Source of the DNA: Oscillospiraceae bacterium
GTDB lineage: Bacteria > Bacillota > Clostridia > Oscillospirales > Ruminococcaceae
DNA: 32,000 nucleotides
Direction: 5' to 3'
NCBI GenBank assembly: GCA_018110905.1
Contig: JAGBAZ010000064.1
Coordinates: forward strand, 63,249 to 95,248
The translations under genes were made by a program, and so were the position numbers. Positions 3,668-20,869 of the stretch are shown here, piece by piece; the first letter of the stretch is position 1; each line of letters begins with the position of its first letter. The notes under the pieces were generated by a model. That model worked only from the letters and a program-made list of their open reading frames with translations. It was not told where the DNA came from and ran no database searches.

Positions 3668-4272
3668 CTAACGAACATAACACGACACACCAGGAAACTT
3701 CATGTTCCATAGATTGGAAATCGTATTACTGTAATGTAAAAAAAGATTTTCTTGAAATGAAAAAATACTATCCTTTTTCCTCTCTAATTATTCGTCCCAC
3801 TTCAACTCAAGAACTTGCTGAAATACAAGTTATCGCAGCAAATAAAAAGTTGATTGAATTGGTATGTGGAAAAAAAGAAGATTTTGTAGGAGATTATTCA
3901 AAAGAACTTCACATTATAGTTCCTATAAATTACCAGAAAGAAGGCTGCGAAGTATATGGAGCAAAGTGGTTTGACAAAACAAAGGTCAAAAGTAAACATA
4001 TTCATATGTTCCAAAATAATAGCGAAAAATACGGATTTCAACTGTGTGTAGGTGTTCCTCAATCTTTTTCTCTAATGAATAATGTTATTCTCGAAAATGT
4101 TAAAACGGCAGAGAATATGCTTATAGCATACGAACGAATTATGGCAGGAATGTCAAAACAATTTGATATGATTGCTTATTCTCATGGAGAAAAAGGGAAA
4201 AAAGAATTTGAAAAAAACAAATCAAAATATATTCCTGAAAGGCAAAAAGATGAAGAAACGAATTTTAGCTAA
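3649..4272 (+). CDS. hypothetical protein, possible E2/UBC-like fold (candidate Cys at nt 4045-4047)
   Basis: The ORF overlaps the cyclase stop (TTG 3649); an alternative ATG is at 3757. ELHIIVPINYQKEGCEVYGAKWF followed by KHIHMFQNNSEKYGFQLCVGVP resembles the UBC strand-flap plus HPN..G.lCl catalytic loop of prokaryotic E2-like proteins. The assignment is by eye only. Confidence 0.5.
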   Translation: MGGFTIANEHNTTHQETSCSIDWKSYYCNVKKDFLEMKKYYPFSSLIIRPTSTQELAEIQVIAANKKLIELVCGKKEDFVGDYSKELHIIVPINYQKEGCEVYGAKWFDKTKVKSKHIHMFQNNSEKYGFQLCVGVPQSFSLMNNVILENVKTAENMLIAYERIMAGMSKQFDMIAYSHGEKGKKEFEKNKSKYIPERQKDEETNFS

Positions 4273-4840
4273 AATAAAAAATAATAATGTTAATCAAGAT
4301 AATTCTAACAATAACATGGTTGAGCAATACAAATTTGTTTATGAGCAAGTAAAAAGTTGGATTGAAAACGCCGACAATAAAGTTAACATCTCTTGCGCAC
4401 TATTTTTTGGAATATTTACAGTTATCACTTTCCTTTCGGAAAAATGTATTGCTGTTCCAGAAAACTCTGTAGTTAATAAGTGTTTTGAAGGAATCTATAC
4501 CTTTTGTTTTGTTGCAAGTATAGTTTCAGCTTTTATTGCTTTGTTATATTATGCTTACTCAATTTTCCCCAATCTTAGTAGTAATGAAACTGATAGCAGC
4601 CTAAAAAGGTATCCAATATTTTTCGGCGATATTGCTTCTATGAGTGCAGAAGAATATAGAAATAAAATACAGAAGGGTACGGACTCTTTATTTGCTGACG
4701 AATTAATTCTTGAAACACATATGAACTCAAAAATTTGTTTGAACAAAATGAAAAGATATAGAATAGGGTTAATATTATCCCTTATTACAGTTGTTTTCTC
4801 AATGTTAAGTTTTGGGGCACATTTTATGATGTATAGATAG
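4250..4840 (+). CDS. 3-TM membrane protein, PycTM/DUF5706-like candidate effector
   Basis: I prefer ATG 4250 (GAAAGG upstream; 23-nt overlap with the previous gene) over the track start 4172. Layout: amphipathic helix ..VKSWIENADNKVN, TM1 ISCALFFGIFTVITFL, TM2 IYTFCFVASIVSAFIALLYYAYSIF, soluble ..MSAEEYRNKIQKG..LILETHMNSKICLNKMKRYR, TM3 IGLILSLITVVFSMLSF. This matches my memory of the Pycsar TM effector family. Confidence 0.6.
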   Translation: MKKRILAKIKNNNVNQDNSNNNMVEQYKFVYEQVKSWIENADNKVNISCALFFGIFTVITFLSEKCIAVPENSVVNKCFEGIYTFCFVASIVSAFIALLYYAYSIFPNLSSNETDSSLKRYPIFFGDIASMSAEEYRNKIQKGTDSLFADELILETHMNSKICLNKMKRYRIGLILSLITVVFSMLSFGAHFMMYR

Positions 4841-4976: not shown

Positions 4977-7418
4977 ATGGCAGTTATGAAATGTAAAATG
5001 TGCGGGGGAGATCTTGAAATTGAGGAAGGCATGAGCGTTGCTGTCTGCGAATATTGCGGAACAAAGCAGACTGTTCCGACCCTCGATAACGAAAGAAAAA
5101 CCAGCCTTTTCGGCAGAGCCGGAAGGCTTTTGCGTGCGTGTGAATTTGACAAGGCCTCAGTGGTCTTCGGCGATATCGTTTCGGAATTTCCGGAAGAAGC
5201 CGAAGCTTATTGGGGCCTTTTGCTTTGCAAATACGGCGTTGAATACGTTGATGACCCGGCAACCGGAAAGAAAATTCCCACCTGCCACCGTCTTTCTTTC
5301 GAAAGCGTAATGGAAGACAGCGATTTTGAACAGGCTTGCGAAAATGCGGATTCCGTTGCAAGGGGAGTTTACCGCGAAGAGGCAAAATTCCTTGAAAATC
5401 TCCGCAAAAACGTAATCGAGGTTTCCAGCAAGGAAGAACCTTACGACGTTTTCATCTGCTATAAAGAAACCGATCCGAACGGCGACCGCACCATCGACAG
5501 CGTTATGGCGCAGGACGTTTATGATGCCCTTACCGAAAAAGGCCTTCGTGTTTTCTTTGCAAGAATCACCCTTGAGGATAAACTCGGAATGGAATATGAG
5601 CCTTATATTTTTGCGGCTCTCAACAGTGCAAAAGTCATGCTTGCAATCGGTACCGATTACGAGTATTTCAACGCTGTCTGGGTAAAGAACGAATGGAGCC
5701 GTTTCCTCAAGCTCATCGCAAAAGGCGAAAAGAAAGTGCTGATTCCTTGCTATAAGGATATCGACGCTTACGACATGCCGAAGGAATTCAAAAACCTTCA
5801 GGCGCAGGATATGGGTAAACTCGGATTCATGCAGGACCTTGTCCGTGGTGTTTGCAAAATTCTTGGAGTTGATGAGAAGAAAGAGGCTGTTGTTGAAAAG
5901 ACCGTTGTAAAAGAAACGGTTGTAAGCGAAAAAGTTATAAATGTTAGTACTTCAAAAGCGGAATCACTTGCAAAACGAGGTTTTATGGCTCTTGAAGATA
6001 GAGATTGGGAAAAAGCGAGAGAATATTTTAATGATTCACTTAATGAAGATGCGGAATATGCAATCGCATACCTTGGTCTTGATATGTGCACCAAATGTGT
6101 TTCGACGGATGAAAGATATGCTAGAATTCTTGATAAAAATAATAAAAATTATGTAAGAGCAAAAAAATTTGCCAAGGGAGCAGCATTAGAAAGAATTACA
6201 AAAATAGAAAAAGCAAATAGTGATTTTGTTGAAGAAAAAAGAAAAGCCGAAAAGAAGAAACAAGATGAAGAAAGAAGAAAGGCGGAAGAAAAAAATCAGA
6301 AGGAAAATATAATAAAAGCCAAGCTGAAAGAATATCTTTCTGATGCTTCTCTTTTGGGTAAATTTGAACACGATAAAAATATTGATTTAGAGATAGCTAA
6401 ACTGAGAGAAGATGCTGATTTATACAGAGACCTGTATTATTCGTTGATTAAATCAGAGGATGCAAAACGGAAATTTGATATGTCAAAAGAAAAAAACAGA
6501 CTAGAAACTCTGAAAGAAGAAAAATCCAAGCTTGGTTTCTTTGCTGGTAAGGAGAAAAAAAGACTTCAGAAAGAAATTGAAGAGACTGAAAATTTAGTGA
6601 AAGCTCTTAATTACAAAGAATCAGAAAGCAATGCACGAAAAGCTATTGCGGAAAAAGAAAAAGAAAAACAATCTCTAAAGAAAAGCACAGAAGAATTTAT
6701 TCTGTTTATGCAGCAGAATGATGTTGGAGCGGTAGTAAAAAAATATAACGATGATAGAATAAAAAAATATGAAAGCTATCTTCCAAATAAAGTCAGAGTA
6801 AATTGCTTTGACAGTATAATAATGGGAAAATATGTTGGTCAACCTATCGAATGGAAAATACTTGCCGTGGAAAATAATAAGGCATTACTTATAAGTAAAT
6901 ATGCGCTTGATGCACTTCCTTTTGATGAACGACTTTATGGAGATGTTTTTTGGGAAAATTGCAGTTTGAGGAAGTGGCTTAATAATACTTTCATTTCTTC
7001 TGCATTCACAGTAAAAGAACGCACATCAATTTTGCTAACAACAATTGATGAAACAAATCCAAGAAATTTTGGATTAATAAAAACCAACGATAGAATATTT
7101 CTTCTTAATAAAAGAGAAGCAGAAAAATATTTTTCTTCAGCAAAAGACAGAGATTGCGTAGCGACATCATATGCAAGATCTGTAATGCAATCAAAAGAAA
7201 ACTGGAGTCCATATGCCCCTAAATATTCTTCTCAAACGAGCTCTAATGGTTCGTGTTGGTGGTGGCTTAGATCAAATAATTGTGAAAGTTCTTATAGAGA
7301 TTCTTACGATTCTATTGAAATTGTACAAGGTGGATATATTGGTGATATGAGAAGTTTTCCGTCTACTTATCCAAATGGCGCAGTCCGCCCTGCTATGTGG
7401 ATAGACCTTGATGTTTGA
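4977..7418 (+). CDS. zinc-ribbon / TIR-domain protein, paralog A; C-terminal WWWLRS-motif domain
   Basis: RBS GAGGAGG 4962-4968. Zinc ribbon CKMCGG..x13..CEYCG; helical module EAEAYWGLLLCKYGVEYVDDP..PTCHR; TIR-like DVFICYKETD..ALNSAKVMLAIGT..AVWVKNEWSRF (Glu codon 239, nt 5691-5693). Then a K/E-rich coiled coil. The C-terminus has IEWKILAVENNKALLISKYAL..SLRKWLNN..CWWWLRS..VRPAMWIDL, which I believe is the family named DUF6273. Confidence 0.85.
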   Translation: MAVMKCKMCGGDLEIEEGMSVAVCEYCGTKQTVPTLDNERKTSLFGRAGRLLRACEFDKASVVFGDIVSEFPEEAEAYWGLLLCKYGVEYVDDPATGKKIPTCHRLSFESVMEDSDFEQACENADSVARGVYREEAKFLENLRKNVIEVSSKEEPYDVFICYKETDPNGDRTIDSVMAQDVYDALTEKGLRVFFARITLEDKLGMEYEPYIFAALNSAKVMLAIGTDYEYFNAVWVKNEWSRFLKLIAKGEKKVLIPCYKDIDAYDMPKEFKNLQAQDMGKLGFMQDLVRGVCKILGVDEKKEAVVEKTVVKETVVSEKVINVSTSKAESLAKRGFMALEDRDWEKAREYFNDSLNEDAEYAIAYLGLDMCTKCVSTDERYARILDKNNKNYVRAKKFAKGAALERITKIEKANSDFVEEKRKAEKKKQDEERRKAEEKNQKENIIKAKLKEYLSDASLLGKFEHDKNIDLEIAKLREDADLYRDLYYSLIKSEDAKRKFDMSKEKNRLETLKEEKSKLGFFAGKEKKRLQKEIEETENLVKALNYKESESNARKAIAEKEKEKQSLKKSTEEFILFMQQNDVGAVVKKYNDDRIKKYESYLPNKVRVNCFDSIIMGKYVGQPIEWKILAVENNKALLISKYALDALPFDERLYGDVFWENCSLRKWLNNTFISSAFTVKERTSILLTTIDETNPRNFGLIKTNDRIFLLNKREAEKYFSSAKDRDCVATSYARSVMQSKENWSPYAPKYSSQTSSNGSCWWWLRSNNCESSYRDSYDSIEIVQGGYIGDMRSFPSTYPNGAVRPAMWIDLDV

Positions 7419-7465
7419 ACCGAATAAATGTTTCTGAATTTTAACGATTGAATAGAGGTAATAAT

Positions 7466-9286
7466 ATGGGAAAATTTGTTATTGAATGTCCGAACTGCGG
7501 AAGATATGTTGAAGCCAAAACCGGCTTCTTCGCAAAAAAGAAAATTGACTGCGTTTGTGGTCATACAATCAACGTAAAAACCGAAAAATTCGCTTCCAAA
7601 GTCTGTGCTCATTGCGGAAACACCGTTGTTTTCGATCAGAGCAAAGGCGACGACGCAATCTGCCCGGTCTGCCATGAAAAAATCAATACACGGGAGGATA
7701 TGAACAACATCGCGGAATTTACCTGCCCTTCCTGCAACTGCAAACTTACCGCAGATAAATCCGCCGTAAGCTATACCTGTCCTCTTTGCGATACCGTAAT
7801 CGACGTTCAGGAAAGAATCGCAAAAGAAAACGTTAAAAACCAGGGCCTTGCAAGCGTAATCAAATACGAAGGCGACAACAACACCTTTGTATGGAAGCAC
7901 CCCATCGAGGACTTTAACCTCGGTTCCCAGCTTATCGTTCACGAATCCCAGGAAGCGATTTTCTTCCGCGACGGAAAAGCGCTCGACCTTTTCGGAGCGG
8001 GTCGCTATACCCTTGCAACCCAGAATATTCCGCTTCTGGAGGAACTTTATAAACTCCCCACCAATGCTGATGAGGTTTTCCATTCCGAGGTCTATTTCGT
8101 AAATATGACCACCCAGATGGGAATCAAATGGGGCACCGACAGCAAGGTAAGACTTTTTGACCCTGCTTCCGGCTTACATATCGAAATCGGCGCCTGCGGC
8201 AATTTCAGCCTCCGTGTTTCCGATTCCAGAAAGCTTCTTGTAAAACTTGTTGGCACTATGCCGGAATTCAACCAGCACGATGTTATGGGTGTTGAGCCTT
8301 TCGGAATCCAGGTTGTTGTGGGTAAATTCAAGGCTCTTGTTATGAACAAGGTCAAATCCAACCTTGCAAAAGTTATCAAAGAAAACGATATCAACATTCT
8401 TGAAATCGACGCATATATTGACCTTCTTTCCGAAAAACTCCGCGTTGTTATCAACGAAACCCTTGCGGAATACGGTCTTACCATGCCGGAATTCTTCATT
8501 ACTTCCGTTATGACCCCGGACGACGACCCCAACTACAGAAGACTTAAACAGCAGTTCGCCGACAGAACTCTTAAAGTTCGCGAGGAGGAAATCCGCAAAG
8601 CGGAAGCTGAAGCTGCCCACGCAAGAAAACTTGTTGAAGCACAGACCGAAGCACAGCTTAAAATTGTCGGTGCGCAGGGCGAAGCGGAAGCACTTAAGAT
8701 CCAGGCCGCTGCAGAAGCCGAAGCATACAAGGCACAGGCGTTTGCCGAAGCGGAAGAAATGCGAGCAAAAGGCTATACCTATCAGCAGGAAACCGCAAGA
8801 ATGGTCGGAATGGAAGCTATGCAGAACGGCATAACCGGCTCCGGAGATTTTGGCGGCGGTTCTTCCATGCTCGGCGATATTGCAGGCCTTGGAGTAACTC
8901 TCGGCGCCATGGGCGGCGTTATCGGCATGACCAAGGAAGCACTTGACCCAATCATGAAATCCACTTCCGAAATCGGCGCAGGCGTTGTTGCCGCCGCTGT
9001 TTCTGCGGAAGCACCCGCCGCACCGGCAAATGATACATGGGACTGCGCATGCGGTTGCAAAGGAATAAAATCCAAATTCTGCCCCGAATGCGGTGCAAAG
9101 AAACCCGAACCGCCGGCAGCATGGGATTGCCCGGCTTGCGGACTTAAAGGCATAACCTCAAAATTTTGTCCGGATTGCGGAACGAAGAAACCGGAAGCAC
9201 CTGCCGTTTGGAACTGCCCTGAATGCGGATGCCAGGGAATCACTTCCAAGTTCTGCCCGGACTGCGGACATAAAAGGGAGGGTTAA
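7466..9286 (+). CDS. SPFH/band-7 (YdjI-like) protein with three N-terminal and three C-terminal zinc ribbons
   Basis: Start moved to ATG 7466 (AGAGGT upstream; the track start 7448 is TTG). N-terminus has CPNCG..CVCG, CAHCG..CPVC and CPSC..CPLC. The core VIKYEGDNNTFVWKHPIEDFNLGSQLIVHESQEAIFFRDGKALDLFGAGRYTL is typical of the 'virion core protein-like' SPFH family. An Ala/Glu coiled coil and a Gly-rich segment follow, then three CxxC..CPxCG repeats. Confidence 0.85.
   Translation: MGKFVIECPNCGRYVEAKTGFFAKKKIDCVCGHTINVKTEKFASKVCAHCGNTVVFDQSKGDDAICPVCHEKINTREDMNNIAEFTCPSCNCKLTADKSAVSYTCPLCDTVIDVQERIAKENVKNQGLASVIKYEGDNNTFVWKHPIEDFNLGSQLIVHESQEAIFFRDGKALDLFGAGRYTLATQNIPLLEELYKLPTNADEVFHSEVYFVNMTTQMGIKWGTDSKVRLFDPASGLHIEIGACGNFSLRVSDSRKLLVKLVGTMPEFNQHDVMGVEPFGIQVVVGKFKALVMNKVKSNLAKVIKENDINILEIDAYIDLLSEKLRVVINETLAEYGLTMPEFFITSVMTPDDDPNYRRLKQQFADRTLKVREEEIRKAEAEAAHARKLVEAQTEAQLKIVGAQGEAEALKIQAAAEAEAYKAQAFAEAEEMRAKGYTYQQETARMVGMEAMQNGITGSGDFGGGSSMLGDIAGLGVTLGAMGGVIGMTKEALDPIMKSTSEIGAGVVAAAVSAEAPAAPANDTWDCACGCKGIKSKFCPECGAKKPEPPAAWDCPACGLKGITSKFCPDCGTKKPEAPAVWNCPECGCQGITSKFCPDCGHKREG
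9032..9286 (+). repeat. three tandem in-frame zinc-ribbon repeats (~28 aa each) at the SPFH C-terminus
   Basis: DTWDCACGCKGIKSKFCPECGAKKPEPP / AAWDCPACGLKGITSKFCPDCGTKKPEAP / AVWNCPECGCQGITSKFCPDCGHKREG. Confidence 0.9.
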
Positions 9287-9289
9287 TCA

Positions 9290-10009
9290 ATGAAATTCAG
9301 TTTTAACGAACTTGGCAAAAAAGAAAAATCCGTTCTTCTTGTTTACGGAATTGTAGCGTTCATCTGTATTCTTGCATTCATCATTATTCCTTTCCCGAAA
9401 AGCGCTTCCAGCTGGCTTGCGCTTTTGTTCCTACTTGTTTCTTTCTGCGTAAGCCTTTATGCGATGAAACTTGCTTTTGAAAACGGAAAAGAGATCATCA
9501 GCAAAATTTACGGTTTTCCGATTTTCAAAATCAGCGTTTATTACGTTGCTGCCCAGGCAATTTTCAGCGTTCTTGTATGCGTTGTTGCAAGCTTTATCAG
9601 ACTGCCTTATTGGGTAACTCTTCTTGTTTCCGTAATCCTTCTCGGCGCAGCTGTTATCGGAATCGTTATTACCGATAACGCAAGGGATATTATCGAAGAT
9701 ACCGAAAAGAAAGACGTTCGTGATACAAAGAAAATCACTCTTTTCAAAATTGATATTGCCGGAATTGTTGACCGCTGCAAAGACGAAACCGCAAAGAAAG
9801 AACTTGAAAAACTTTCCGAAGCATTCAGATACAGCGACCCGGTTTCCAGCGATGCAACCAAGGAACTTGAGGACGAAATAACCGAAGAACTTGAGGAACT
9901 CAAAAAAGAAGTTGCCGAAAACGATGTGGAAGATATCATCGAAAAAGCAACCGAAATTTCCAACCTTCTTGCAGAAAGAAACAAAGTTTGCAAGGCGTTT
10001 AAGAAGTAA
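9290..10009 (+). CDS. 4-TM membrane protein with acidic helical cytoplasmic tail
   Basis: ATG 9290 lies 3 nt after the SPFH stop, preceded by GGGAGGG. Four hydrophobic helices (VLLVYGIVAFICILAFIIIPF, WLALLFLLVSFCVSLYAM, ISVYYVAAQAIFSVLVCVVASFI, YWVTLLVSVILLGAAVIGIVI) are followed by a D/E/K-rich tail. Confidence 0.8.
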   Translation: MKFSFNELGKKEKSVLLVYGIVAFICILAFIIIPFPKSASSWLALLFLLVSFCVSLYAMKLAFENGKEIISKIYGFPIFKISVYYVAAQAIFSVLVCVVASFIRLPYWVTLLVSVILLGAAVIGIVITDNARDIIEDTEKKDVRDTKKITLFKIDIAGIVDRCKDETAKKELEKLSEAFRYSDPVSSDATKELEDEITEELEELKKEVAENDVEDIIEKATEISNLLAERNKVCKAFKK

Positions 10010-10030
10010 TCAAACAAGGATGCGTTGTTT

Positions 10031-10477
10031 ATGACAGTAAAAGAAGCAAGCCACATTTTTAATCTTGATGAAAAAGAAATTAGAAAAAGAAAACAAGATG
10101 ATATGATTATAGGTGTAAGAAAAGACGGAAAGTTTATTTTTATACCAGATGATACAAAGATTATACCGTCTAAAATAGAAATTAAAGCTTTTTTGTTAGA
10201 AATAATTAAGTATAAAAATAATGATAAAATTGTGTTGGATAGAAGTTTATGCCCAAATAACGACACTTTAATTGCTATTGCAGAATATCTTTATAAAAAA
10301 GGCTTTATCGGTGAATTTGATTATTTTAATAACGCTTACAATTTTTTTGATGAAGTAAAACTCACCGACAAAGGTATAGAGTTCATATTTGAAAAAGAAT
10401 CACAAAAAATTGCCAAATACCAATTTTTTCCCATTCAACTGAACCCAAATAATTCTTTAGTAAGTTTAACATTGTAA
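10031..10477 (+). CDS. small protein with excisionase/MerR-type HTH-like N-terminus
   Basis: ATG 10031 (the track start 10025 is TTG). MTVKEASHIFNLDEKEIRKRKQDDMIIGVRKDGKFIFIPDD resembles the Xis-type winged HTH (..tvkEaa..lgvs..tirr....g.i....g....ip..). The gene is visibly more AT-rich than its flanks. Confidence 0.55.
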   Translation: MTVKEASHIFNLDEKEIRKRKQDDMIIGVRKDGKFIFIPDDTKIIPSKIEIKAFLLEIIKYKNNDKIVLDRSLCPNNDTLIAIAEYLYKKGFIGEFDYFNNAYNFFDEVKLTDKGIEFIFEKESQKIAKYQFFPIQLNPNNSLVSLTL

Positions 10478-10499
10478 AAAATTTTGCGGAGGCATAAAC

Positions 10500-13127
10500 A
10501 TGTCAGTTTTCAAATGTAAAATGTGCGGCGGCGACCTTGAGGTCACCGAAGGAATGAAAGTAGTCGAATGTGAATATTGCGGAACGACCCAGACCGTTCC
10601 GAACAGCGACAACGAAAAGAAAACGAATCTTTTCAACCGCGCAAACAGACTCAGAATCGCAAACGAATTTGACCGCGCGGCAGGCGTTTATGAAAATATC
10701 ATCTCCGAATTTCCCCGGGAAGCAGAAGCTTACTGGGGCCTTTGCCTTTGCAAATTCGGTATTGAATATGTAGATGACCCGAGAACGGCGGAAAAAATTC
10801 CAACCTGCCACAGAACTGCATTTGAAAGCATTTTTGACGACAGCAACTTCAAAACTGCCATTGAGCTTTCCGACCCGGTCGCAAAGAAAGTGTATAATTC
10901 CGAAGCAAGGATAATCGATACTCTTCAGCAGAACATTCTCACCATCGTAAACCGCGAAAAGCCTTTTGACGTTTTCATCTGCTACAAAGAAACTGATTCC
11001 AAAGGCGACAGAACCATGGACAGCGTTCTTGCACAGGATATCTATGATGCCTTGACCGCAAAAGGACTCAAGGTTTTCTTTGCACGCATAACTCTTGAAG
11101 ACAAGCTTGGTCAGGAATATGAGCCCTACATATTTGCGGCTTTGAACAGCGCAAAAATCATGCTTGCCATCGGCACCGCAGAAGAATACTACAATGCTGT
11201 CTGGGTCAAGAACGAATGGAGCAGATTTCTTTCTCTTATGAAGACCGACAGAAGCAAGGTGCTTATTCCTTGCTATAAAGATATCGACGCATACGATATG
11301 CCTGCTGAGTTCAGAAACCTCCAGGCACAGGATATGGGCAAACTCGGCTTTGTTCAGGATCTTACCAGAGGTGTCTGCAAAATCCTTGGGGTTGAGGAGA
11401 AGAAAGAAACTGTTGTTGAAAAAGTTATCGTAAAAGAAGTTATAAAAGAAAGAGTTGTTGGAGCAAGTACACAAAATATTCCGAACATAAATGTAAGCGG
11501 GATTCTTGATTTGGCGTTCGAAGATCTTAAAAATGGAAAATATTTTGAAGCGAGTAAATCTGCGGGAAAGGCGATTGGATTCGACCCGGCTAATGTCAGA
11601 GCGCATCTTTGCAAGCTTTGCGCAGAAATGAGAGTTAACGATATTGAAAAACTTTCCGAGTCGGAAAAAGGTAATATAGAAGATAGCGATTATTACAAAA
11701 ATATACTTTGCATAGCTGATGATGATCTTAAAGAAAAATTAAAAAAACAAGCAAAAATACAAAAAGCAAGATTTGAAGAAAGAAAGCGCAAAGAAGAGGA
11801 ACGCATCGCGGGAGAAAAAAGAAAAGAACAAGAAGAAATACACATTTTTAATGAAAAATGGGAAATAGAAAAAGTTTCTAAGTTTGAAACAGCTGATAAT
11901 TTATTAAGAAATGCAAAAAGGCTGTCAGATTATGATAAAATCAAAGAACTTTTTGTCGGATATGAAGAAATGGACGAAGTAAAAAATCTTTTAGAAGAAG
12001 TGTCCGCACAAAAAAGAGAATGTTACAGAAAGATTGTAAAACATGTTGAAAGTCAGCTTTCTTTTGGCAATCCACATATCGTTTTTCTTAATAAAGGACA
12101 TGCTTATGTTTCAGGTAAATCAACAACTGCGGCATGTGTTAAAAAAAGTGAACTGTGGAATTTAGACAGCATTTGTTTTGTGCTTGACCATTATGATAAT
12201 AATCAGCAGTGGCCGGAATTTGGATTTATCGGCTTTAAAAAGACTGGTGAAATCACTCAGACTAAAGATTCTGATAATGTGAATTCTGAATATAAAAAAA
12301 GTCCGGATTATGATTTTTCGGACTGTACTGAGATAAAAAAAGTATTGGTTTTTGAAGAAAAAGACTATATTACTCTTAAAATCGATGGAACTGTAGTAAA
12401 AAAAGGCGACTATAGCGAAAAAATTTCTCAGTGGAAAGATATTATCGATATCTCGACAAGCGGTAAACATATTGTAGGTTTAAAATCTGATGGTACTGTT
12501 GTTGCAGTAGGAGAAAACGGCAGTAAACAATGTAATGTTTCTGAATGGAAAGATATAGTTGCAATTGAAACTTCTGAAGAGAATACTTTAGGTGTTAAAC
12601 GAAACGGAACTGTTGTGCAAACAGGAAATAAATATGATATTTCAGATTGGAGAGATATCGTAATTGCTGCTAGTGAACGTGATGGTGATATAACAGCACT
12701 TCAAAGCAATGGGGAATTGGTGCATAAAAATAGAAACCAGTCTCGTTATAATTTTAAAAAAGGAAAGATTGCGGGAGTTTTTGCGAATAACTTTAATACA
12801 GTTGTAATTTATTTTGACGGAAGTGCCGAAATTAAAGGAATAGACAACAATAAGCAATGTAACTGTTGGGCGTGCAAGATATTTGATGATGCGGAAGAGT
12901 TTGCGGAACAAAGAGAAAAAATGCTGAAAGAACGGTATGAAAAGAAAATGAGAGAAAAAGCTGAACAGGAAGCCGCCCGCAAAGCTAAAATTGAGTCTCT
13001 TGAAAAAGAAAAAGCAACCCTTGAAGCGGAACTCTCCAACATAAAAGGCCTTTTCAGCGGTGGCAAAAAAGCAAAAGTTGAAGCAAGAATTGCGGAAATA
13101 GAAAAAGAACTCCAAACCTTGAAATAA
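10500..13127 (+). CDS. zinc-ribbon / TIR-domain protein, paralog B; C-terminal RCC1-like repeats
   Basis: RBS GCGGAGG. It has the same N-terminal chassis as paralog A (Glu codon 239 at 11214-11216). The C-terminus carries beta-propeller-type repeats (HIVGLKSDGTVVAVGENGSKQCNVSEWKDIVAIE.., LGVKRNGTVVQTGNKYDISDWRDIV..) and a terminal coiled coil. Confidence 0.85.
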   Translation: MSVFKCKMCGGDLEVTEGMKVVECEYCGTTQTVPNSDNEKKTNLFNRANRLRIANEFDRAAGVYENIISEFPREAEAYWGLCLCKFGIEYVDDPRTAEKIPTCHRTAFESIFDDSNFKTAIELSDPVAKKVYNSEARIIDTLQQNILTIVNREKPFDVFICYKETDSKGDRTMDSVLAQDIYDALTAKGLKVFFARITLEDKLGQEYEPYIFAALNSAKIMLAIGTAEEYYNAVWVKNEWSRFLSLMKTDRSKVLIPCYKDIDAYDMPAEFRNLQAQDMGKLGFVQDLTRGVCKILGVEEKKETVVEKVIVKEVIKERVVGASTQNIPNINVSGILDLAFEDLKNGKYFEASKSAGKAIGFDPANVRAHLCKLCAEMRVNDIEKLSESEKGNIEDSDYYKNILCIADDDLKEKLKKQAKIQKARFEERKRKEEERIAGEKRKEQEEIHIFNEKWEIEKVSKFETADNLLRNAKRLSDYDKIKELFVGYEEMDEVKNLLEEVSAQKRECYRKIVKHVESQLSFGNPHIVFLNKGHAYVSGKSTTAACVKKSELWNLDSICFVLDHYDNNQQWPEFGFIGFKKTGEITQTKDSDNVNSEYKKSPDYDFSDCTEIKKVLVFEEKDYITLKIDGTVVKKGDYSEKISQWKDIIDISTSGKHIVGLKSDGTVVAVGENGSKQCNVSEWKDIVAIETSEENTLGVKRNGTVVQTGNKYDISDWRDIVIAASERDGDITALQSNGELVHKNRNQSRYNFKKGKIAGVFANNFNTVVIYFDGSAEIKGIDNNKQCNCWACKIFDDAEEFAEQREKMLKERYEKKMREKAEQEAARKAKIESLEKEKATLEAELSNIKGLFSGGKKAKVEARIAEIEKELQTLK

Positions 13128-13145
13128 AATCCGGAGGACAGAAAA

Positions 13146-15584
13146 ATGGCAGTATTCAAATGTAAAATGTGCGGCGGTGACCTTGAGGTCACCGAAGGAA
13201 TGAAAGTAGTCGAATGCGATTTCTGCGGAACGACTCAGACTGTTCCCACTGTAAAAGATGAAAATATTCAGAGCCTTTTCAACAGGGCAAATACTCTTCG
13301 TATGAAGTCCGAATTTGACAAAGCGGAAGCAATTTATGAAAAAATCGTGCAAGCAAAAGAGGACGAATGCGAGGCATATTGGGGTATAATTCTCTGCCGC
13401 TATGGTATTGAATATGTGGAGGATCCTAAAACTTTCAAGCGTATCCCCACCTGCCACAGAACTTCCTACGATTCCGTAATTGCGGACGAAGACTATAAAT
13501 CCGCAATAAAATATGCCGATCTCGTCCAGAGAATCGTTTATGAAAACGAGGCAAAGGAAATTGACCGTATTCAAAGGGAGATTCTCGAACTTTCCCAAAA
13601 AGAAGAGCCTTACGACGTTTTTATCTGCTATAAAGAAACGGATTCTGCCGGAAGACGCACTGTTGACAGTGCCATCGCCAACGATATTTACTACCAGCTT
13701 ACCCAGGAAGGCTATAAGGTTTTCTATGCCGCTATCACCCTTGAGGACAAGCTGGGTTCTGCTTATGAACCCTGCATTTTTGCCGCGCTCAATTCCGCAA
13801 AAGTTATGCTTGCCATTGGTACAAAACCGGAATATTTTAATGCCGTCTGGGTGAAAAACGAATGGTCAAGATATCTCCGCCTTATGAAAAACGACCGCAC
13901 AAAACTGCTTATTCCTTGCTATAAGGATATGGATGCCTATGAACTTCCGGACGAATTTGCGCATCTTCAGGCGCAGGATATGGGCAAAATCGGTTTTATC
14001 AACGACATTGTCCGCGGAATCAAAAAGGTTATTGTAAAAGATGAGCAGAAAGCACCAGCTTTTACTGCCGCCGCAGTAGCATCTGCACCTGCAGGAAATG
14101 CTGCACCTCTTCTCAAACGCGCATTCATATTCCTTGAAGATGAGGAATGGGAAAGTGCTGATGAATACTTTGAAAAAGTTCTGGATATGGATCCGGAATG
14201 TGCAGAAGCATATCTTGGAAAACTTTGCGTTGAGCTTGAAGTTACTGATATTGATGAGCTTTCAAACATTAATGATGATTTTGAAAACAGAGCAAATTTC
14301 AAGAAGGCTATTCGTTTTGCAACCGGTGAAGCAAAAAAGAAAATTGATGCGATAATTGAAAACAAAAAGAACAGAATAGAAGAAGAAAAACGCAAAAAAG
14401 AAGAGCAGCTTGCGGAGAAAAAACGCCTTGAGCAGGAAAAAAAGAAAAAAGAGAAGTACTTATTTTTGATTGACAATGTAGAAACATCAACAAATTTTGA
14501 CAGTTTGGAAAATCTTTATCACAGACTGCTTGCTTTGGGAGATTATTTGGATGCGCCCAAATATGCAGAAGAATGCCGTATAAAGATGGAAGAATATGAA
14601 GTCATAGACCGAATTTGGAAAGAATATTCCGAAGCATATGCCGAATATAACTCTGCAAGAAAGGCTCTAGATAACGTTAAAGAAAAATTTTGCAGTGTTG
14701 AAAGTAATTTGACTATCTGGATAAGCGAATTTGAAACTGTTTCTGATGCACGTAATAAATTATTGGATATCGATAAAGAAATTACAGAAACATATAACAG
14801 AATAGTTTTTCTTGCAAAAGAAAAGGAAAATCTTGGAGTTTTTGCTTTTTCAAAAAAGAAAGAAATTTCCGATGAAATTGAAAGACTGGAAGCAAAAAGA
14901 CAAAGGTTGGAATGTGACAGGAAAAAATATAATTCTATAGTTACATGTTCCAAAACAGAAGAAGAATTTAGAGAAAAAATAAAAACTGCAGAGGAAAGCA
15001 AACAATCTGTAGAAAATGAACAGGCTTTTCTTCAGGAAAAAGAAAAAGAGTTCAAAAATAGTTTCGATATTGTAACTGAAAAAGTACTTGATAAAAATGT
15101 ACTTATTAAATTATTTAATTACCAAAATGCAGGTGATGTTCTGCTTTTGAATGAGAGAATAAAGGAATATATTTCGAACGATGAAGAACTTTCCGGACAA
15201 ATAAATACAAACATGGATTATGTGGATGCGGTATCTGATATAGAAGAAATATATTTTGAAGCCTGTGCTCTTCTCAGCAATACCCGTATAAGTAATTCTG
15301 CCGAGCTGGCGCTTGAAAAATTCATGTCTATAAAAGGATATAAGGATTCCAAATTAAAAATTGAAGAATGCAAGAAAAAACTTGGAAAGAACACCGTAAA
15401 ATCAATAAATAAATCCAATACACATAAAAGTATTACGAACGAAAAACGCTGTCCATATTGTGGCTTTTCCTTAGATAATAAAGTGGAGAAATTATTGGAT
15501 CTTTATTTGGAGGGGGAAGATGTTAAATGTCCGGAATGCGGCAGGCTCTTTGATGATGATATAATGATGAAAATTTTAGATTAA
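13146..15584 (+). CDS. zinc-ribbon / TIR-domain protein, paralog C; long coiled coil and C-terminal zinc ribbon
   Basis: RBS GGAGGA; 18-nt gap after paralog B. Same chassis (Glu codon 239 at 13860-13862). The C-terminal half is predicted helical/coiled coil and ends with CPYCG..x22..CPECG. Confidence 0.85.
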   Translation: MAVFKCKMCGGDLEVTEGMKVVECDFCGTTQTVPTVKDENIQSLFNRANTLRMKSEFDKAEAIYEKIVQAKEDECEAYWGIILCRYGIEYVEDPKTFKRIPTCHRTSYDSVIADEDYKSAIKYADLVQRIVYENEAKEIDRIQREILELSQKEEPYDVFICYKETDSAGRRTVDSAIANDIYYQLTQEGYKVFYAAITLEDKLGSAYEPCIFAALNSAKVMLAIGTKPEYFNAVWVKNEWSRYLRLMKNDRTKLLIPCYKDMDAYELPDEFAHLQAQDMGKIGFINDIVRGIKKVIVKDEQKAPAFTAAAVASAPAGNAAPLLKRAFIFLEDEEWESADEYFEKVLDMDPECAEAYLGKLCVELEVTDIDELSNINDDFENRANFKKAIRFATGEAKKKIDAIIENKKNRIEEEKRKKEEQLAEKKRLEQEKKKKEKYLFLIDNVETSTNFDSLENLYHRLLALGDYLDAPKYAEECRIKMEEYEVIDRIWKEYSEAYAEYNSARKALDNVKEKFCSVESNLTIWISEFETVSDARNKLLDIDKEITETYNRIVFLAKEKENLGVFAFSKKKEISDEIERLEAKRQRLECDRKKYNSIVTCSKTEEEFREKIKTAEESKQSVENEQAFLQEKEKEFKNSFDIVTEKVLDKNVLIKLFNYQNAGDVLLLNERIKEYISNDEELSGQINTNMDYVDAVSDIEEIYFEACALLSNTRISNSAELALEKFMSIKGYKDSKLKIEECKKKLGKNTVKSINKSNTHKSITNEKRCPYCGFSLDNKVEKLLDLYLEGEDVKCPECGRLFDDDIMMKILD

Positions 15585-15608
15585 ACTTAACAAGGAAGTG
15601 TTCATAAA

Positions 15609-18224
15609 ATGGCAGTATTCAAATGTAAAATGTGCGGCGGAGCACTTGAAGTAAATAACGGCGAAAGCGTTGCAGTATGTGATTATTGCGGCACTAAACA
15701 GACTTTGCCGAAAACCGATGACGGCGTTGTTGCAAATCTTTTCAACCGCGCAAATAATCTTCGCCTTAAATGTGAATTCGATAAAGCGGAAGCAATCTAT
15801 GAGAAAATTCTTGAGCAGGACAATACCGAAGCAGAAGCTCATTGGGGCATAATTCTCTGCAAATACGGCATTGAATACGTTGAAGATCCGAAAACTTTTG
15901 AACGTATTCCCACCTGTCACAGAACTTCCTATGAATCCATAACCGCAAGCGCAGAATACCTTGCAGCGCTTGAGCATGCGGATTCTGTGCAGAGAGAAGT
16001 CTATGAGCACGAAGCTAAAGCAATTGATTCTATCCAGAAGAACATTTTGAGCATCGTCAAAAACGAAAAGCCATTCGATGTTTTTATCTGCTATAAAGAA
16101 ACGGACGAAAATGGAAAACGCACTGTTGATAGCGCCATCGCCAACGATATTTACTATCAGCTTACTCAGGAGGGTTTTAAAGTTTTCTATGCCGCAATCA
16201 CCCTTGAGGACAAGCTCGGTCAGGAATATGAACCTTACATATTTGCCGCTCTTAACAGTGCAAAGGTTATGCTTGCAATCGGAACAAAGCCGGAATATTT
16301 TGAAGCGGTATGGGTCAAAAACGAATGGAGCCGTTTTATGAACCTTATGAAAACCGACCGTTCCAAGCTTCTTATTCCTTGCTATAAGGATATGGATGCT
16401 TACGATCTGCCGGAGGATTTTGCTCACCTTCAGGCGCAGGATATGGGTAAAATCGGTTTTATCAACGATGTAGTCCGCGGCATCAAAAAGGTTATTGTAA
16501 AAGATGAGCCGAAAGTGGTTGCACCGGTTGTTACAAAAGTTGTCGCTTCTTCCGGAAGTGAACCGAACACCGCCCAGCTTCTCAAGCGTGCATTTATGTT
16601 CCTCGAGGACAGGGAATGGGAAAGCGCGGACGAATACTGTGAAAAAGTTCTTGACCTCGATGCGGAAAATGCAGAAGCATATCTTGGAAAGCTTATGGCG
16701 GAACTCAGAATCAGTAAAAAAGAATATTTGAGTAGTTGTTCTGACCCGTTCGACAACCGAAACAATTACAAAAAAATAATTCGTTTCGGTGATGAAAAAC
16801 TTTGTGAGGAACTTAAGAGTTATAACAAGCAAATCAGAGAGCGCAACGAACTGAACCGTAAAAATGTAATTTACAACGCCGCCTGCGGATTTATGAATTC
16901 AGCAGAATCTGAAGATGATTATAAAGAAGCGGCTGCAAAATTTGGCGAAGTTTTGAACTTTAAGGACGCAAAAGCAAGAAAAGAAAAGTGCATTGATTTG
17001 GCAGAAGAAGCAAGAAAAGAAACAATTTACCAGCAAGCAGAGAGAAAATATAGTTGTTCTTCATTTGCTGAAGCTGCAGAAACATATGGAAAAATATCCG
17101 GGTATAAAGATTCTGATAAAAGAAAAAAAGAGAGCCTTGAAAAAGCTGAGGATGAACGAAAAAATTCAATTTACCTCGAGGCATGCGAATATAAAAATAC
17201 ACAAACTATTGCTGGATATAAATATGCAATAGAAAAATTTGAAACGATTTTGGAGTGGCGAGACGCTTCTAATCAAATAGAAATTTGTAAAGACAGGATT
17301 TGCATACTTGAACAAAAGGAAGAAAAAGCAAGAATCGAAGCACAGCATAAAGCCGAAGTGGATAGAATTGCGGCAGAAAAGAGAAAGAAGAAAAATAAAA
17401 TAATGGCAGCAATCGTGACGTCAATCGCACTTATTTCTATTGCTGCAATCGTTGTGTTTATAACTGTAATTCAGCCGCAGAACGAATATAATGCTGCTGT
17501 TGCTCTTGTGGAAGAAGGAAAATATGAAGAGGCGTATAATATTTTTATTAAACTTGGAGATTATAAAGATTCTGCTGAAATAGTGTCTAGTGTCCGTATA
17601 CAAAAAATTAAAAATCTTGGAGATATAAAAATCGGTGATGAAATAATACTAGGAGCGTATGAACAAGATAACGATACATCTAATGGCAAAGAAGAAATAA
17701 AATGGATTGTTATTGATTCAAATGGTGGTAAAATTCTTGTTATAAGCAAATATGCCCTTGATTGTAAACCATTTAATACCAAAAATGAAAACACTACTTG
17801 GGAAAAATGTACTCTTCGTAGTTGGTTGAATAATGATTTTTTGAATTTTGCTTTTTCTGAAGCTGAAAAGGAAGTTATTCCAACAATGGTAATTGCGGGA
17901 GCTTGGAATAGTGAACAAAAAACAAGTTCTGGTAATAATACTCAAGATAAAATCTTCTTATTAAGTATAAGTGAGACGGATAAATATTTCAAAACTTATA
18001 AAGATAAATTATGTAAACCGACAGCATATGCTATAGCTAATGGGGCGTTTGCTGACGAATCAAAAGGAAATTGTTGGTGGTGGCTTCGCTCTTTTGGAAA
18101 TGCCCAAAATTTAGTTGAGTATATTAACTATAAAAATACGGATCAAAAGAACAGTTTTAATGTGGATTTTGCCCGGTGTGCTGTCCGCCCCGCAATGTGG
18201 ATTGATTTATCGGCAGTGGAATAA
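15609..18224 (+). CDS. zinc-ribbon / TIR-domain protein, paralog D; single TM helix and C-terminal WWWLRS-motif domain
   Basis: RBS AAGGAAG; 24-nt gap after paralog C. Same chassis (Glu codon 239 at 16323-16325). Repeated ..GYKDS/..FKDA helical repeats. TM helix IMAAIVTSIALISIAAIVVFITVI (nt ~17403-17470) is preceded by KRKKKNK. C-terminus: IKWIVIDSNGGKILVISKYAL..TLRSWLNN..CWWWLRS..VRPAMWIDL. Confidence 0.85.
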   Translation: MAVFKCKMCGGALEVNNGESVAVCDYCGTKQTLPKTDDGVVANLFNRANNLRLKCEFDKAEAIYEKILEQDNTEAEAHWGIILCKYGIEYVEDPKTFERIPTCHRTSYESITASAEYLAALEHADSVQREVYEHEAKAIDSIQKNILSIVKNEKPFDVFICYKETDENGKRTVDSAIANDIYYQLTQEGFKVFYAAITLEDKLGQEYEPYIFAALNSAKVMLAIGTKPEYFEAVWVKNEWSRFMNLMKTDRSKLLIPCYKDMDAYDLPEDFAHLQAQDMGKIGFINDVVRGIKKVIVKDEPKVVAPVVTKVVASSGSEPNTAQLLKRAFMFLEDREWESADEYCEKVLDLDAENAEAYLGKLMAELRISKKEYLSSCSDPFDNRNNYKKIIRFGDEKLCEELKSYNKQIRERNELNRKNVIYNAACGFMNSAESEDDYKEAAAKFGEVLNFKDAKARKEKCIDLAEEARKETIYQQAERKYSCSSFAEAAETYGKISGYKDSDKRKKESLEKAEDERKNSIYLEACEYKNTQTIAGYKYAIEKFETILEWRDASNQIEICKDRICILEQKEEKARIEAQHKAEVDRIAAEKRKKKNKIMAAIVTSIALISIAAIVVFITVIQPQNEYNAAVALVEEGKYEEAYNIFIKLGDYKDSAEIVSSVRIQKIKNLGDIKIGDEIILGAYEQDNDTSNGKEEIKWIVIDSNGGKILVISKYALDCKPFNTKNENTTWEKCTLRSWLNNDFLNFAFSEAEKEVIPTMVIAGAWNSEQKTSSGNNTQDKIFLLSISETDKYFKTYKDKLCKPTAYAIANGAFADESKGNCWWWLRSFGNAQNLVEYINYKNTDQKNSFNVDFARCAVRPAMWIDLSAVE

Positions 18225-18235
18225 GGAGTGATAAA

Positions 18236-18433
18236 ATGCCGAACTTAAGTCAGATGCAGGGTGTTTCTGCACATTTGGAAACGCTTAAAGCAAAAGATTC
18301 CCGAAGGCATCCTGCACATTGTATTTTTGCAGAGGGAAAAGGTATAAACCGCGTTTGCACCTGCCCTCAATGCGAAATTTATTTACAGCATTGTGGAACT
18401 GCAAAGCTGTGTGGATATTATGAAAAGAAATAA
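18236..18433 (+). CDS. small Cys-rich hypothetical protein (65 aa)
   Basis: Strong RBS AAGGAG lies 7 nt before ATG 18236, 11 nt after the paralog D stop. Six Cys and several His (..HCIFAEG..CTCPQCEIYLQHCGTAKLCGYY). No family recognised. Confidence 0.5.
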   Translation: MPNLSQMQGVSAHLETLKAKDSRRHPAHCIFAEGKGINRVCTCPQCEIYLQHCGTAKLCGYYEKK

Positions 18434-18449
18434 TTAGCTGTTTACAGAA

Positions 18450-19030
18450 AACGCCGAGCCAAGCCTGCTTTACAGGAAGGTGTAACGACTGGACACGGAG
18501 CAACCCAAGCGGTTGAAGGCACAGTCTGAACTTGCAGGTGACTGCAAGAGCCACACAGAAATGATGTGGCCTCCGCGAAAGCGGTGTAACAAAATTGAAA
18601 ATTAATGTATGTCAAAAAAATAATGACAAAAATTAAGAAATTCGCCTCCACTGTTTTCGCAGCAGTGAGCGAATAGCTTAAGACGGTAACAGCGAATATA
18701 GGTTCCGCAATCATCAGCGAACTAATAGCTGATGCGATAATAAAACAATTTAGTGTAGGTTCTGTTGAGCGTACATAGGCAAACGCTGAATTTATTTGTG
18801 CGATAGTTTTTTTGATATTGTTGTTAGTACAAAAGACTATAGAAAACTATAACAACCTCCTGGAAAACCGTAAAGCCGCAATAACGGTTGACAGAAAAAA
18901 CTGCGGTAAATATTTAAATATGGAGGTAAGAAAGTTGCCTCCCTACACAGTAATGTGTAGCAAACAACTCCGTAAATTCGGTGAAACTCTGTATGCAATG
19001 ACCGGTATAACAATTTGTTTATACCGGTCA
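18450..19030 (+). ncRNA. candidate structured RNA or DNA-structure region (ORF-poor, hairpin-dense)
   Basis: No convincing ORF on either strand. Plus-strand hairpins: CTTGCAG-GTGA-CTGCAAG (18531-18548), GCCACA..TGTGGC (18550-18570), CCGC-GAAA-GCGG (18573-18584), GACTG..CAGTC (18487-18526) enclosing CAACC-CAAGC-GGTTG, TTCGC..GCGAA (18656-18673), CATCAGC..GCTGATG (18712-18734), GGAGG..CCTCC (18922-18942), CTACACA-GTAA-TGTGTAG (18943-18960) and ACCGGTATA..TATACCGGT (19001-19028). Three loops are GNRA only when read on the + strand. Confidence 0.3.
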
Positions 19031-19038
19031 TTCTTTTG

Positions 19039-19374: not shown

Positions 19375-19391
19375 TCCTTTCTGTTGGGGTT

Positions 19392-20845: not shown

Positions 20846-20869
20846 AACGTCCTCTCCTTCGTACTTGTT

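Follow-up and report, generated by a model that had tools for sequence, protein, structure and literature searches.

A TIR-protein operon of gut and rumen Clostridia with a conserved front end, divergent AT-rich tails, and SPFH and membrane-protein partners

What kind of system places one conserved N-terminal segment in front of several different C-terminal architectures, and why does base composition change inside each of its genes? Both questions are raised by nucleotides (nt) 4977-18224 of a 32,000-nt stretch of DNA from an Oscillospiraceae bacterium (assembly GCA_018110905.1, contig JAGBAZ010000064.1, forward-strand positions 63,249 to 95,248), hereafter the window, where four paralogous genes for TIR-domain proteins (A to D) stand on either side of two further genes. 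With a probability of roughly 0.6, we read the interval as a receptor-bank operon, in which a constant TIR front end is joined to swappable AT-rich tails that are exchanged by homologous recombination, together with SPFH and transmembrane (TM) partners. A preliminary description of this DNA, made from the sequence alone, had treated the interval as a set of paralogs only and overlooked the SPFH/Zn-ribbon and 4-TM genes, which are conserved partners of the TIR family. The features of the operon are as follows.

4977-7418, + strand, TIR paralog A, 813 amino acids (aa)
7466-9286, + strand, SPFH/Band-7 gene (PF13421, YdjI-type; partner 1), Band_7_1 E 1e-39
9290-10009, + strand, 4-TM gene (partner 2), 239 aa, homologs found by tblastn
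10500-13127, + strand, TIR paralog B, 875 aa
13146-15584, + strand, TIR paralog C, 812 aa
15609-18224, + strand, TIR paralog D, 871 aa

The genes are codirectional in the order A-SPFH-TM-(inserted ORF)-B-C-D, and successive TIR genes are spaced by 18 to 30 nt, without small open reading frames (ORFs) in between. As the preliminary description had noted, the four paralogs have a common N-terminal segment: aa 1 to 300 align without gaps at 60 to 76% pairwise aa identity (mean column identity 78%), and all four match TIR_2 (PF13676) at aa 158 to 280 (E 4e-11 to 2.5e-10; 41 to 44 bits vs. a cut-off of 28). In AlphaFold2 models of A (full length, m5a0eca1fef6d; predicted local distance difference test score, pLDDT, 80.5) and C (aa 1 to 375, pLDDT 80.6), this front end is laid out as a Zn ribbon with four cysteines (aa 1 to 34), a module made of a TPR-like helical hairpin, a beta hairpin with an invariant PTCHR motif and two more helices (aa 35 to ~152), and a TIR fold (aa ~155 to 296), after which come a disordered linker (aa ~300 to 324) and TPR-like helices (aa ~327 to 398). 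The modeled TIR domain matched the TIR structures of L6, L7, RPS4, SPARTA, TcpB, and MyD88 with a probability of 1.0 and TM-scores of 0.5 to 0.66, normalized by target. Its WVKNE motif (W-x-x-x-E) carries a glutamate, E239, that does not vary among the four paralogs or across 70 family members; W235, V236, E239, and W240 were all invariant in 70 sequences, and E239 aligns with the glutamate of the WCxxE motif (WCQYE) in a Toll-like receptor (TLR) TIR domain. We take this position to be the catalytic residue of TIR NADases, and the conserved glutamate of W-x-x-x-E in the alpha-C region predicts a catalytically competent TIR. Purifying selection on the front ends is strong, the ratio of nonsynonymous to synonymous substitution rates (dN/dS) being 0.02 to 0.05 vs. 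0.13 to 0.33 in the tails.

Composition changes within every one of the four genes. The preliminary description had reported by eye a break inside each gene, with a host-like 5' part and an AT-rich 3' part, and quantification upheld both observations. Total GC drops from 0.42-0.49 to 0.29-0.35, and GC content at third codon positions (GC3) falls from 0.52 to 0.21 in A (support codons 286 to 310), from 0.52 to 0.24 after codon 301 in B (nt 11403), from 0.46 to 0.26 after codon 294 in C (nt 14028), and from 0.43 to 0.23 after codon 429 in D (nt 16896). For A, the change point can be given as an interval.

5835-5906, + strand, interval for the GC3 change point of A, optimum after codon 289 (nt 5844)

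These breaks are maximum-likelihood change points, and for each of A to D none of 500 shuffles reached a likelihood gain as high as that observed. Four of five control genes in the window were without a comparable break, the fifth, a STAND gene, having a weaker one (1 of 200 shuffles). Amino-acid composition was rejected as the cause of the AT-richness: a GC3 gap of 0.15 to 0.30 persists after stratifying by amino acid, so the K/E-rich composition of the tails alone does not produce it. Codon usage in the front ends matches that of rpsB/tsf at the right end of the window (GC3 0.46), with no TTA or CTA and with serine encoded by TCC or AGC. The tails, with TTA, TCT, and AGT, are like the adjacent Pycsar genes and other AT-rich cargo, and their GC3 of 0.21 to 0.26, vs. 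0.37 to 0.51 in the host-type genes of the window, is comparable only to that of such cargo. In A to C, the composition changes where the TIR domain ends, upstream of the conserved TPR-like motif, and it is because the break precedes the motif there that the motif is AT-rich in A to C and GC-richer in D. The end of the conserved region and the composition boundary therefore do not coincide, the TPR-like motif being conserved yet AT-rich in A to C. Of the chassis originally drawn, Zn ribbon, helical module, and TIR domain stand, whereas the TPR-like motif falls on the AT-rich side in A to C. In our reading, the intragenic GC3 break marks the junction of the front end and a replaceable back end.

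The four copies are old duplicates, since their third codon positions are only 44 to 56% identical, and recent gene conversion among A to D was rejected on the same count as the source of their GC-rich 5' parts. An exception to this old divergence is a 38-nt tract common to B and C, within a first 60 nt that is 95% identical between the two genes, against ~65% for the remainder. The run probably marks where a short tract was once converted or recombined.

10533-10570 and 13179-13216, + strand, identical 38-nt run at the 5' ends of B and C

Antisense ORFs of 318 to 418 aa that overlie the conserved 5' parts (10503-11606, 15576-16832, and 12642-13598, all on the - strand) were rejected as genes; they are open because, in the codon-aligned antisense frame, the front ends have no TTA or CTA codon and almost no TCA (0 to 1 per front end).

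The break is a property of the family and not of the window alone. Among 102 complete genome homologs, tail GC3 was lower than front-end GC3 in 88, with a drop above 0.1 in 31 (33 after amino-acid control), and was never more than 0.1 higher. When these homologs and the four window genes were combined into a change-point set of 106 genes, strong change points were found in 23, all from high to low, at codons 196 to 465 and in 22 cases within codons 279 to 465. Compared with flanking genes, front-end GC3 differed by +0.01 (not significant) and tail GC3 by -0.08 (p 3e-10). In a metagenome set fetched via the SPFH gene, 64 of 75 unique genes differed by more than 0.1 (mean 0.19) and 59 had significant change points, every one in the same direction, although this set is phylogenetically clustered and its breaks are therefore not independent events. 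Isolate genomes follow the same pattern, including Pseudoflavonifractor capillosus An827 (locus L004, GC3 0.81-0.85 falling to 0.54-0.71) and Ruminococcaceae YRB3002.

That sensors are swapped onto a fixed signaling chassis, as first suggested from the four window genes, is borne out by allele pairs in other genomes. Across 190 genes, 175 pairs had front ends 90 to 99.5% nt-identical and unalignable tails, vs. 111 colinear pairs. Two operons that are 97 to 99% identical (L135 and L165) differ in their first TIR gene, which is unalignable from codon ~295 to the stop; this is a clean cassette replacement of one tail. The reverse mosaic is found in two Lachnospiraceae genomes, whose genes L070_9201 and L049_11069 are 72 to 80% identical over nt 1 to 550, rise to 98 to 100% identity for the rest of the gene, and lie in unrelated flanking sequence. 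The gene for P0006 has 75 to 97% nt identity to A up to nt ~880 and is unrelated beyond, breaking off at the same place as the GC3 change point of A. Paralogs within one locus (L004, L016, L049, L053, and L065) likewise have ~90% nt identity over the front end and random identity after nt 850 to 1100. Finer exchange is also visible. A protein identical to A (P0121) is encoded on an independent ENA contig. P0122 is 95 to 100% identical to A except at codons ~452 to 580, where the synonymous divergence (dS) is 0.89 as opposed to 0.10 to 0.22 elsewhere. This diverged internal patch indicates mosaicism inside the stalk as well as at the junction of front end and tail. The same coiled-coil segment (codons ~452 to 580, window positions 6330-6720) is only 42 to 78% nt-identical between A and its L083 counterpart, in alleles that are otherwise 95 to 100% identical.

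Rapid evolution alone does not cause the break, since colinear orthologs (L018, L022, L024, and others) have fast tails without a GC3 drop (47 to 77% identity in tails vs. 86 to 97% in front ends; GC3 difference ~0). Because a tail in an array is flanked by two conserved stretches, it would be replaceable as a cassette by homologous recombination. As for where tails might come from, capture from known phages was rejected, the search having returned two small unannotated fecal contigs at ~35% identity.

What, then, is exchanged? Tail A consists of TPR-like helices (aa 327 to 398), a long helical stalk of ~200 residues (aa 401 to 596), and a DUF6273 domain (aa 613 to 810), and the protein is soluble (maximum 19-residue hydropathy 0.91); none of A to C has a hydrophobic segment, their maxima being below 1.2. 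Tail B, also soluble, has a diverged TPR-like motif, a coiled coil, and RCC1-like beta-propeller repeats (~aa 520 to 790), followed by a C-terminal helix, LFSGGKK...EARIAEIEKEL, that recurs elsewhere in the TIR family. Its RCC1 match is marginal (one RCC1_2 repeat, 24.3 bits vs. a cut-off of 22; WD40_RLD, 20 bits vs. 150), and iterative search places the tail with members of the family whose RCC1_2 matches reach E 7e-66. Tail C, soluble as well, combines an Ala-rich linker, TPR-like helices (aa 319 to 374), a long coiled coil, one GYKDS-type repeat, and a terminal Zn ribbon, CPYCG...CPECG (aa ~766 to 800, nt ~15440-15545). Tail D contains a TPR-like segment (aa 333 to 372), GYKDS-type helical repeats, a K/R-rich stretch, and a TM helix (aa ~598 to 622, nt 17400-17474; hydropathy 2.78 at aa 600, KRKKKNK just before it), beyond which lies a DUF6273 domain (aa 707 to 866, nt 17727-18206) predicted to be extracytoplasmic. 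The coiled coil and Zn ribbon of C and the GYKDS repeats and TM helix of D are thus as first described, and the WWWLRS-motif domain recognized by eye in A and D proved to be DUF6273 (PF19789; CWWWLRS and VRPAxWI motifs), with E 1.7e-22 in A (aa 633 to 810) and E 7e-28 in D (aa 707 to 866) and no match of this profile in B or C.

The four C-terminal regions had been taken for four different, nonhomologous modules. There are indeed four architectures, but they are built from three kinds of terminal module, since DUF6273 is the terminal domain of both A and D (blastp 34% over 211 aa, E 5e-31). C and D have the GYKDS-type helical repeat in common (E 1e-4) and the TPR-like motif is present in all four paralogs; the rest of the C-terminal regions diverge. 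The full-length model of A matched a gut-phage DUF6273 protein with a TM-score of 0.63 normalized by target, at 13 to 15% identity to such proteins. In gut phages, DUF6273 is a C-type-lectin-like receptor-binding domain diversified by diversity-generating retroelements (DGRs; PMC10743442; bioRxiv 10.1101/2024.10.15.618418). DGR targeting of the DUF6273 ends of A and D was rejected, there being no direct repeat involving 7200-7418 or 18000-18224 and no reverse transcriptase among the ORFs scanned. DUF6273 was also found fused to Hanks-type Ser/Thr kinase domains in related bacteria (P0135, P0138, P0148, P0152, and P0213), where it is a putative ectodomain; the same binding domain is apparently reused as the sensor of a different signaling output.

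A profile search with the front end returned 3,333 protein clusters (90% identity) and at least 583 matches in species-representative genomes. All matches listed were from gut or rumen Clostridia, namely Oscillospiraceae, Lachnospiraceae, Acutalibacteraceae, Ruminococcus, Pseudoflavonifractor, and Blautia, and cultured carriers include P. capillosus An827, Lachnospiraceae NE2001, Ruminococcaceae YRB3002, and a Blautia isolate. Two to four front-end genes were present in 36 of 80 loci. The chassis is fused to further C-terminal domains in the family: among 101 tails, Pfam identified RCC1-like (26), DUF6273 (24), BspA-type leucine-rich repeat (LRR; LRR_5, 5), LRR_8 (3), MORN (3), Wzt_C (2), and WG-repeat (1) domains. 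Many tails had no Pfam match, and a C-terminal Zn ribbon, CQHCGG...CGKxKDY, recurs in 15 members. Tail classes were defined by Pfam and iterative search; blastp single-linkage clustering was dropped because it joined 92 of 106 tails through their coiled-coil and TPR segments.

TM helices occur in the tails of 38 of 106 proteins. K and R residues are more frequent before the helix than after it (5.8 vs. 1.5), and the excess before the helix in all 32 single-TM members indicates an N-in/C-out topology. Two members (L057, 2015-5071; L072, 6873-9929) have the order TIR-TM-LRR, in which a single TM helix at aa ~594 precedes a large domain of BspA-type LRRs (LRR_5, E 1.6e-103). A search with the N-terminal module only, for fusions to something other than TIR, listed mostly short fragments and one real stand-alone case. 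The latter, P0249 (169 aa), consists of the Zn-ribbon/helical module alone and occurs on 12 contigs, the longest of 105 kb (L084/L085, 6001-6510), directly downstream of a gene for a 62-aa ribbon-helix-helix protein in an arrangement resembling a toxin-antitoxin pair.

Like the front ends, the two partner genes are host-like in codon usage (GC3 0.51 in partner 1). Partner 1 has N-terminal Zn ribbons, a Band_7_1 domain (136.9 bits vs. a cut-off of 24, aa 155 to 359), an Ala/Glu-rich coiled coil, a Gly-rich hydrophobic segment, and three C-terminal Zn-ribbon repeats; its mechanical ORF runs from a TTG at 7448, and the start was called at the ATG at 7466, as in the gene call of L081. Partner 2 has hydrophobic N-terminal helices and an acidic helical C terminus, lies always directly downstream of the SPFH gene, and gave no family match in Pfam, NCBIfam, PADLOC, or PHROGs. 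In the TIR-anchored loci, an SPFH homolog was present in 45 of 80 and a TM homolog (tblastn) in 38 of 80, always on the same strand, and the operon order across loci is [TIR]0-3 - SPFH - TM - [TIR]0-4. The reciprocal set consisted of 39 metagenome loci anchored on SPFH and extending 3 kb or more to either side; 38 had an adjacent front-end gene and all 39 a TM homolog. One ORF of the window separates partner 2 from B.

10025-10477, + strand, AT-rich ORF (orf10025) of 150 aa with a helix-turn-helix (HTH)-like N terminus, GC 0.26, between the TM gene and TIR B

None of the 80 related loci contains this ORF, which had no match in Pfam, PADLOC, NCBIfam, or PHROGs. In relatives, the TM stop lies only 10 to 30 nt from the following TIR start, and orf10025 is outside the conserved operon.

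We propose that these genes are a widespread and apparently undescribed three-part system of gut and rumen Clostridia, in which TIR proteins work with an SPFH scaffold and a small membrane protein. The operon unit would be [TIR protein]n - SPFH/Zn-ribbon protein - 4-TM protein - [TIR protein]n, each TIR protein pairing a constrained front end with a replaceable back end, in which a flexible linker, the TPR-like motif, and a coiled-coil stalk would lead to a terminal ligand-binding module (C-type-lectin-like DUF6273, RCC1-like propeller, LRRs, MORN repeats, Zn ribbon, or others) that may be cytoplasmic or, after a TM helix, extracellular. AT-rich back-end cassettes would be exchanged by homologous recombination, the homology arms for a tail being its own front end plus the front end of the next gene or the SPFH gene. 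The array could then act as a bank of receptors with differing specificities and a single common TIR output. Ligand bound to a tail would cluster the TIR domains via the coiled-coil stalk, and clustering, by analogy with known TIR systems, might cause NAD+ cleavage or production of a signal nucleotide, with the SPFH/TM pair as membrane scaffold or downstream effector. Anatomy, conservation, operon partnership, composition break, recombination mosaics, and the membrane-topology signal are direct observations. We infer TIR enzymatic activity, activation by ligand, and this SPFH/TM role, as well as a role in defense or conflict; an immune function is plausible, and the window copy of the operon has Pycsar and a STAND NTPase as neighbors. 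A more specific version, in which cassettes are swapped between strains and TM members are Toll-like surface receptors that sense phages or other threats by NAD+ signaling at an SPFH platform, is tentative, and we consider it about half as probable as the general reading.

The system was not found in the literature searched. SPFH, Band 7, PF13421, and DUF6273 are absent from the text and supplements of a systematic TIR survey (bioRxiv 10.64898/2025.12.03.692087), and the only NCBIfam match was a sub-threshold, TIR-level one to ThcB4 (22.6 bits vs. a cut-off of 220).

Several observations weigh against a receptor bank that serves defense. Fast-moving defense genes seldom have the extreme conservation and host-like composition that the front ends show. 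PADLOC has no model that matched any component, and the flanks of 39 other loci are heterogeneous and mostly housekeeping, with no recurrent defense neighbor; about 10 of 138 flanking entries in these loci had a PADLOC match, and the association with defense islands outside the window is weak. No nucleotide-sensing domain was detected in the SPFH or TM protein, which leaves a Thoeris-like signal relay without an identified receiver. A donor pool for the AT-rich tails was found neither in the phage collection nor in IMG/VR, the latter containing no front-end relatives. Simple exchange between hosts does not predict that the GC3 step should run strictly one way, as it does even in low-GC hosts; the tails may be under a lasting bias toward AT, and AT-biased mutation under weaker selection may contribute.

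The conserved partners invite a different account, in which the operon is a housekeeping module for envelope stress or surface sensing. The SPFH/TM pair would be a membrane-surveillance scaffold like YdjI/YdjH of the Bacillus subtilis pspA-ydjGHI operon, and the TIR proteins would be YdjG-like clients or sensors of cell-wall, glycan, or host-mucus ligands that adjust NAD metabolism or signaling. The SPFH protein belongs to the PF13421 (YdjI-type) family, and YdjI requires the membrane proteins YdjG (Zn ribbon) and YdjH and connects PspA to the membrane (PMC8581546, PMC9239133). The account also gains from the position of the operon mostly amid ordinary chromosomal genes, with host-like composition, from front-end dN/dS as low as in core genes, and from lectin-like, LRR, or propeller tails of which many are extracytoplasmic. 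Nevertheless, we regard it as unlikely. The likeness to YdjG is confined to the N-terminal Zn ribbon, no PspA gene is present among the window ORFs scanned, and the catalytic glutamate of the TIR domain is invariant. Multicopy arrays in which tails are pervasively replaced, with dN/dS 5 to 8 times as high in the tails as in the front ends, are what conflict systems typically show.

A second alternative concerns the break itself, which could be a steady state rather than a recombination scar: weakly selected tails would be pulled toward AT by universal mutation pressure, while constrained front ends would keep host-preferred C- or G-ending codons through selection for translational accuracy. 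The constancy of direction speaks for it and counts against exchange, none of 177 genes having a tail richer by more than 0.1. In addition, the GC3 difference rises with host GC3 (r = 0.54), tails follow host GC3 with an offset, and tails have the elevated dN/dS given above. Even so, we find this alternative somewhat less probable than the housekeeping one. The change points are abrupt, and in A homology to P0006 ends at the same place as the change point; the composition of the conserved TPR-like motif differs, being AT-rich in A to C and GC-richer in D; the fast-tailed colinear orthologs show almost no GC3 difference; the tails of the window fall far below its host-type genes and resemble only AT-rich cargo; and the L070/L049 and L135/L165 pairs are direct mosaics. 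Finally, a chimeric assembly that fused a host-like 5' segment to unrelated AT-rich DNA is very improbable, even though the window apparently comes from a metagenome assembly and repeated front ends could mislead assemblers, as the same junctions occur in an independent assembly from another run (L083, 95 to 100% nt identity across the A junction), reading frames are open through all four junctions, and the isolate genomes An827 (L004) and YRB3002 have the same pattern.

How the receptor-bank operon relates to known systems can be judged part by part. As in Thoeris, TIR proteins stand beside a constant non-TIR partner, and in our reading several TIR sensors would likewise serve one effector here. 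TM-containing effectors are known in some Thoeris types. No gene in 4977-18224 had a PADLOC match to ThsA or ThsB, and unlike Thoeris, the TIR proteins here are 800 to 1100 aa long, with a Zn-ribbon/helical N terminus and large modular sensor tails, and their partner is an SPFH plus a 4-TM protein without a recognized nucleotide-binding domain. Thoeris loci often have several divergent TIR paralogs, which are thought to widen recognition (bioRxiv 10.64898/2025.12.03.692087). The B. subtilis PspA-YdjG-YdjH-YdjI system also encodes a PF13421-type SPFH protein with a small multi-TM protein and one or more Zn-ribbon proteins; here, the scanned window ORFs include no PspA, and the Zn-ribbon proteins bear TIR domains and variable sensors. 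Thoeris with multiple ThsB proteins and YdjG/H/I are the closest in logic, and the system belongs to neither.

Likeness to other modular proteins is more remote. The preliminary description had compared the genes with NLR/Avs-type immune receptors. Avs and NLR-like STAND receptors do combine an effector domain with variable C-terminal recognition domains and shuffle domains across the family; however, kinship was not supported, as A to D had no STAND or NTPase family match in Pfam, NCBIfam, or PADLOC. There is no central NTPase, a coiled-coil stalk taking its place, and many members are transmembrane with the sensor outside. Rhs and other polymorphic toxins similarly join a conserved 5' part in frame to a variable, AT-richer 3' tip exchanged by recombination, with a GC-rich core, a variable AT-rich extension, and a toxin as the tip (PMC7259588). 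An immunity gene comes after the Rhs tip, and the Rhs core is of foreign origin; in the TIR genes, by contrast, it is a binding domain that varies, the constant part is host-like with an enzymatic TIR domain predicted from its sequence, and no immunity-like small ORFs are present. A polymorphic toxin or Rhs-type identity was rejected, given that the variable parts are binding or repeat domains, that no small ORFs lie between the genes, and that the N terminus is a cytoplasmic Zn ribbon. TM members resemble TLRs in their cytoplasmic TIR domain, single TM helix, and extracellular LRR (L057, L072), lectin-like, or propeller domain. The order is reversed, with TIR N-terminal and an N-in/C-out orientation, and a Zn-ribbon/helical module and a coiled coil are present in addition. 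The TIR domains have only their fold in common, and the likeness is an analogy, with no evidence for common descent of the architecture.

If the receptor-bank reading is true, bacterial TIR proteins gain a large family that is built differently from the TIRs of Thoeris, Avs, CBASS, and prokaryotic Argonautes (pAgo), and TIR signaling becomes tied to an SPFH membrane scaffold. The locus would also be a natural case of receptor-repertoire diversification by cassette exchange, with junctions that can be read from codon composition and thus a reusable signature when scanning for modular receptors. The TM members would be the closest bacterial layout analog of TLRs, and extracellular TIR-based threat sensing would become testable.

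On either side of the operon lie genes of other kinds.

2306-3667, Pycsar PycC cyclase, PADLOC E 7e-35
3649/3757-4272, extra gene of 171 to 207 aa between PycC and PycTM, no family match
~4250-4840, Pycsar PycTM effector, E 1e-25
19039-19374, - strand, MobC-like ORF, identified by eye
19606-20130, IstB/DnaC-like ATPase
20393-20845, RepA_N
21232-22173, ParM/ALP actin-like protein
22362-24689, - strand, STAND NTPase-TPR gene with NB-ARC, nSTAND3, and TPR matches and no PADLOC match
25797-27386, large serine recombinase, near the STAND gene

The Pycsar system (2306-4840) is directly upstream of A, and all its genes are AT-rich (GC3 0.23 to 0.27). In the closest relative, L083, the upstream sequence differs from 90 nt before the start codon of A, and Pycsar is not present. 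The Pycsar, HTH, orf10025, STAND, RepA_N, and ParM-like genes were in none of the related loci, and the IstB-like and serine-recombinase genes had distant matches only (23 to 29% identity), in one and four loci, respectively. Rfam and tRNA scans of the window returned nothing. Downstream, positions 18225-27400 form a plasmid-like or mobilizable module beside the host rpsB/tsf genes, which suggests an integrated element that abuts the TIR operon. Within it, a 38-nt inverted repeat (22278-22315 and 24770-24807, 97% complementary) brackets the whole STAND gene, which with these repeats could be an invertible or mobile gene cassette. The weaker GC3 step of the STAND gene, from 0.51 to 0.34, is located at codon 121.

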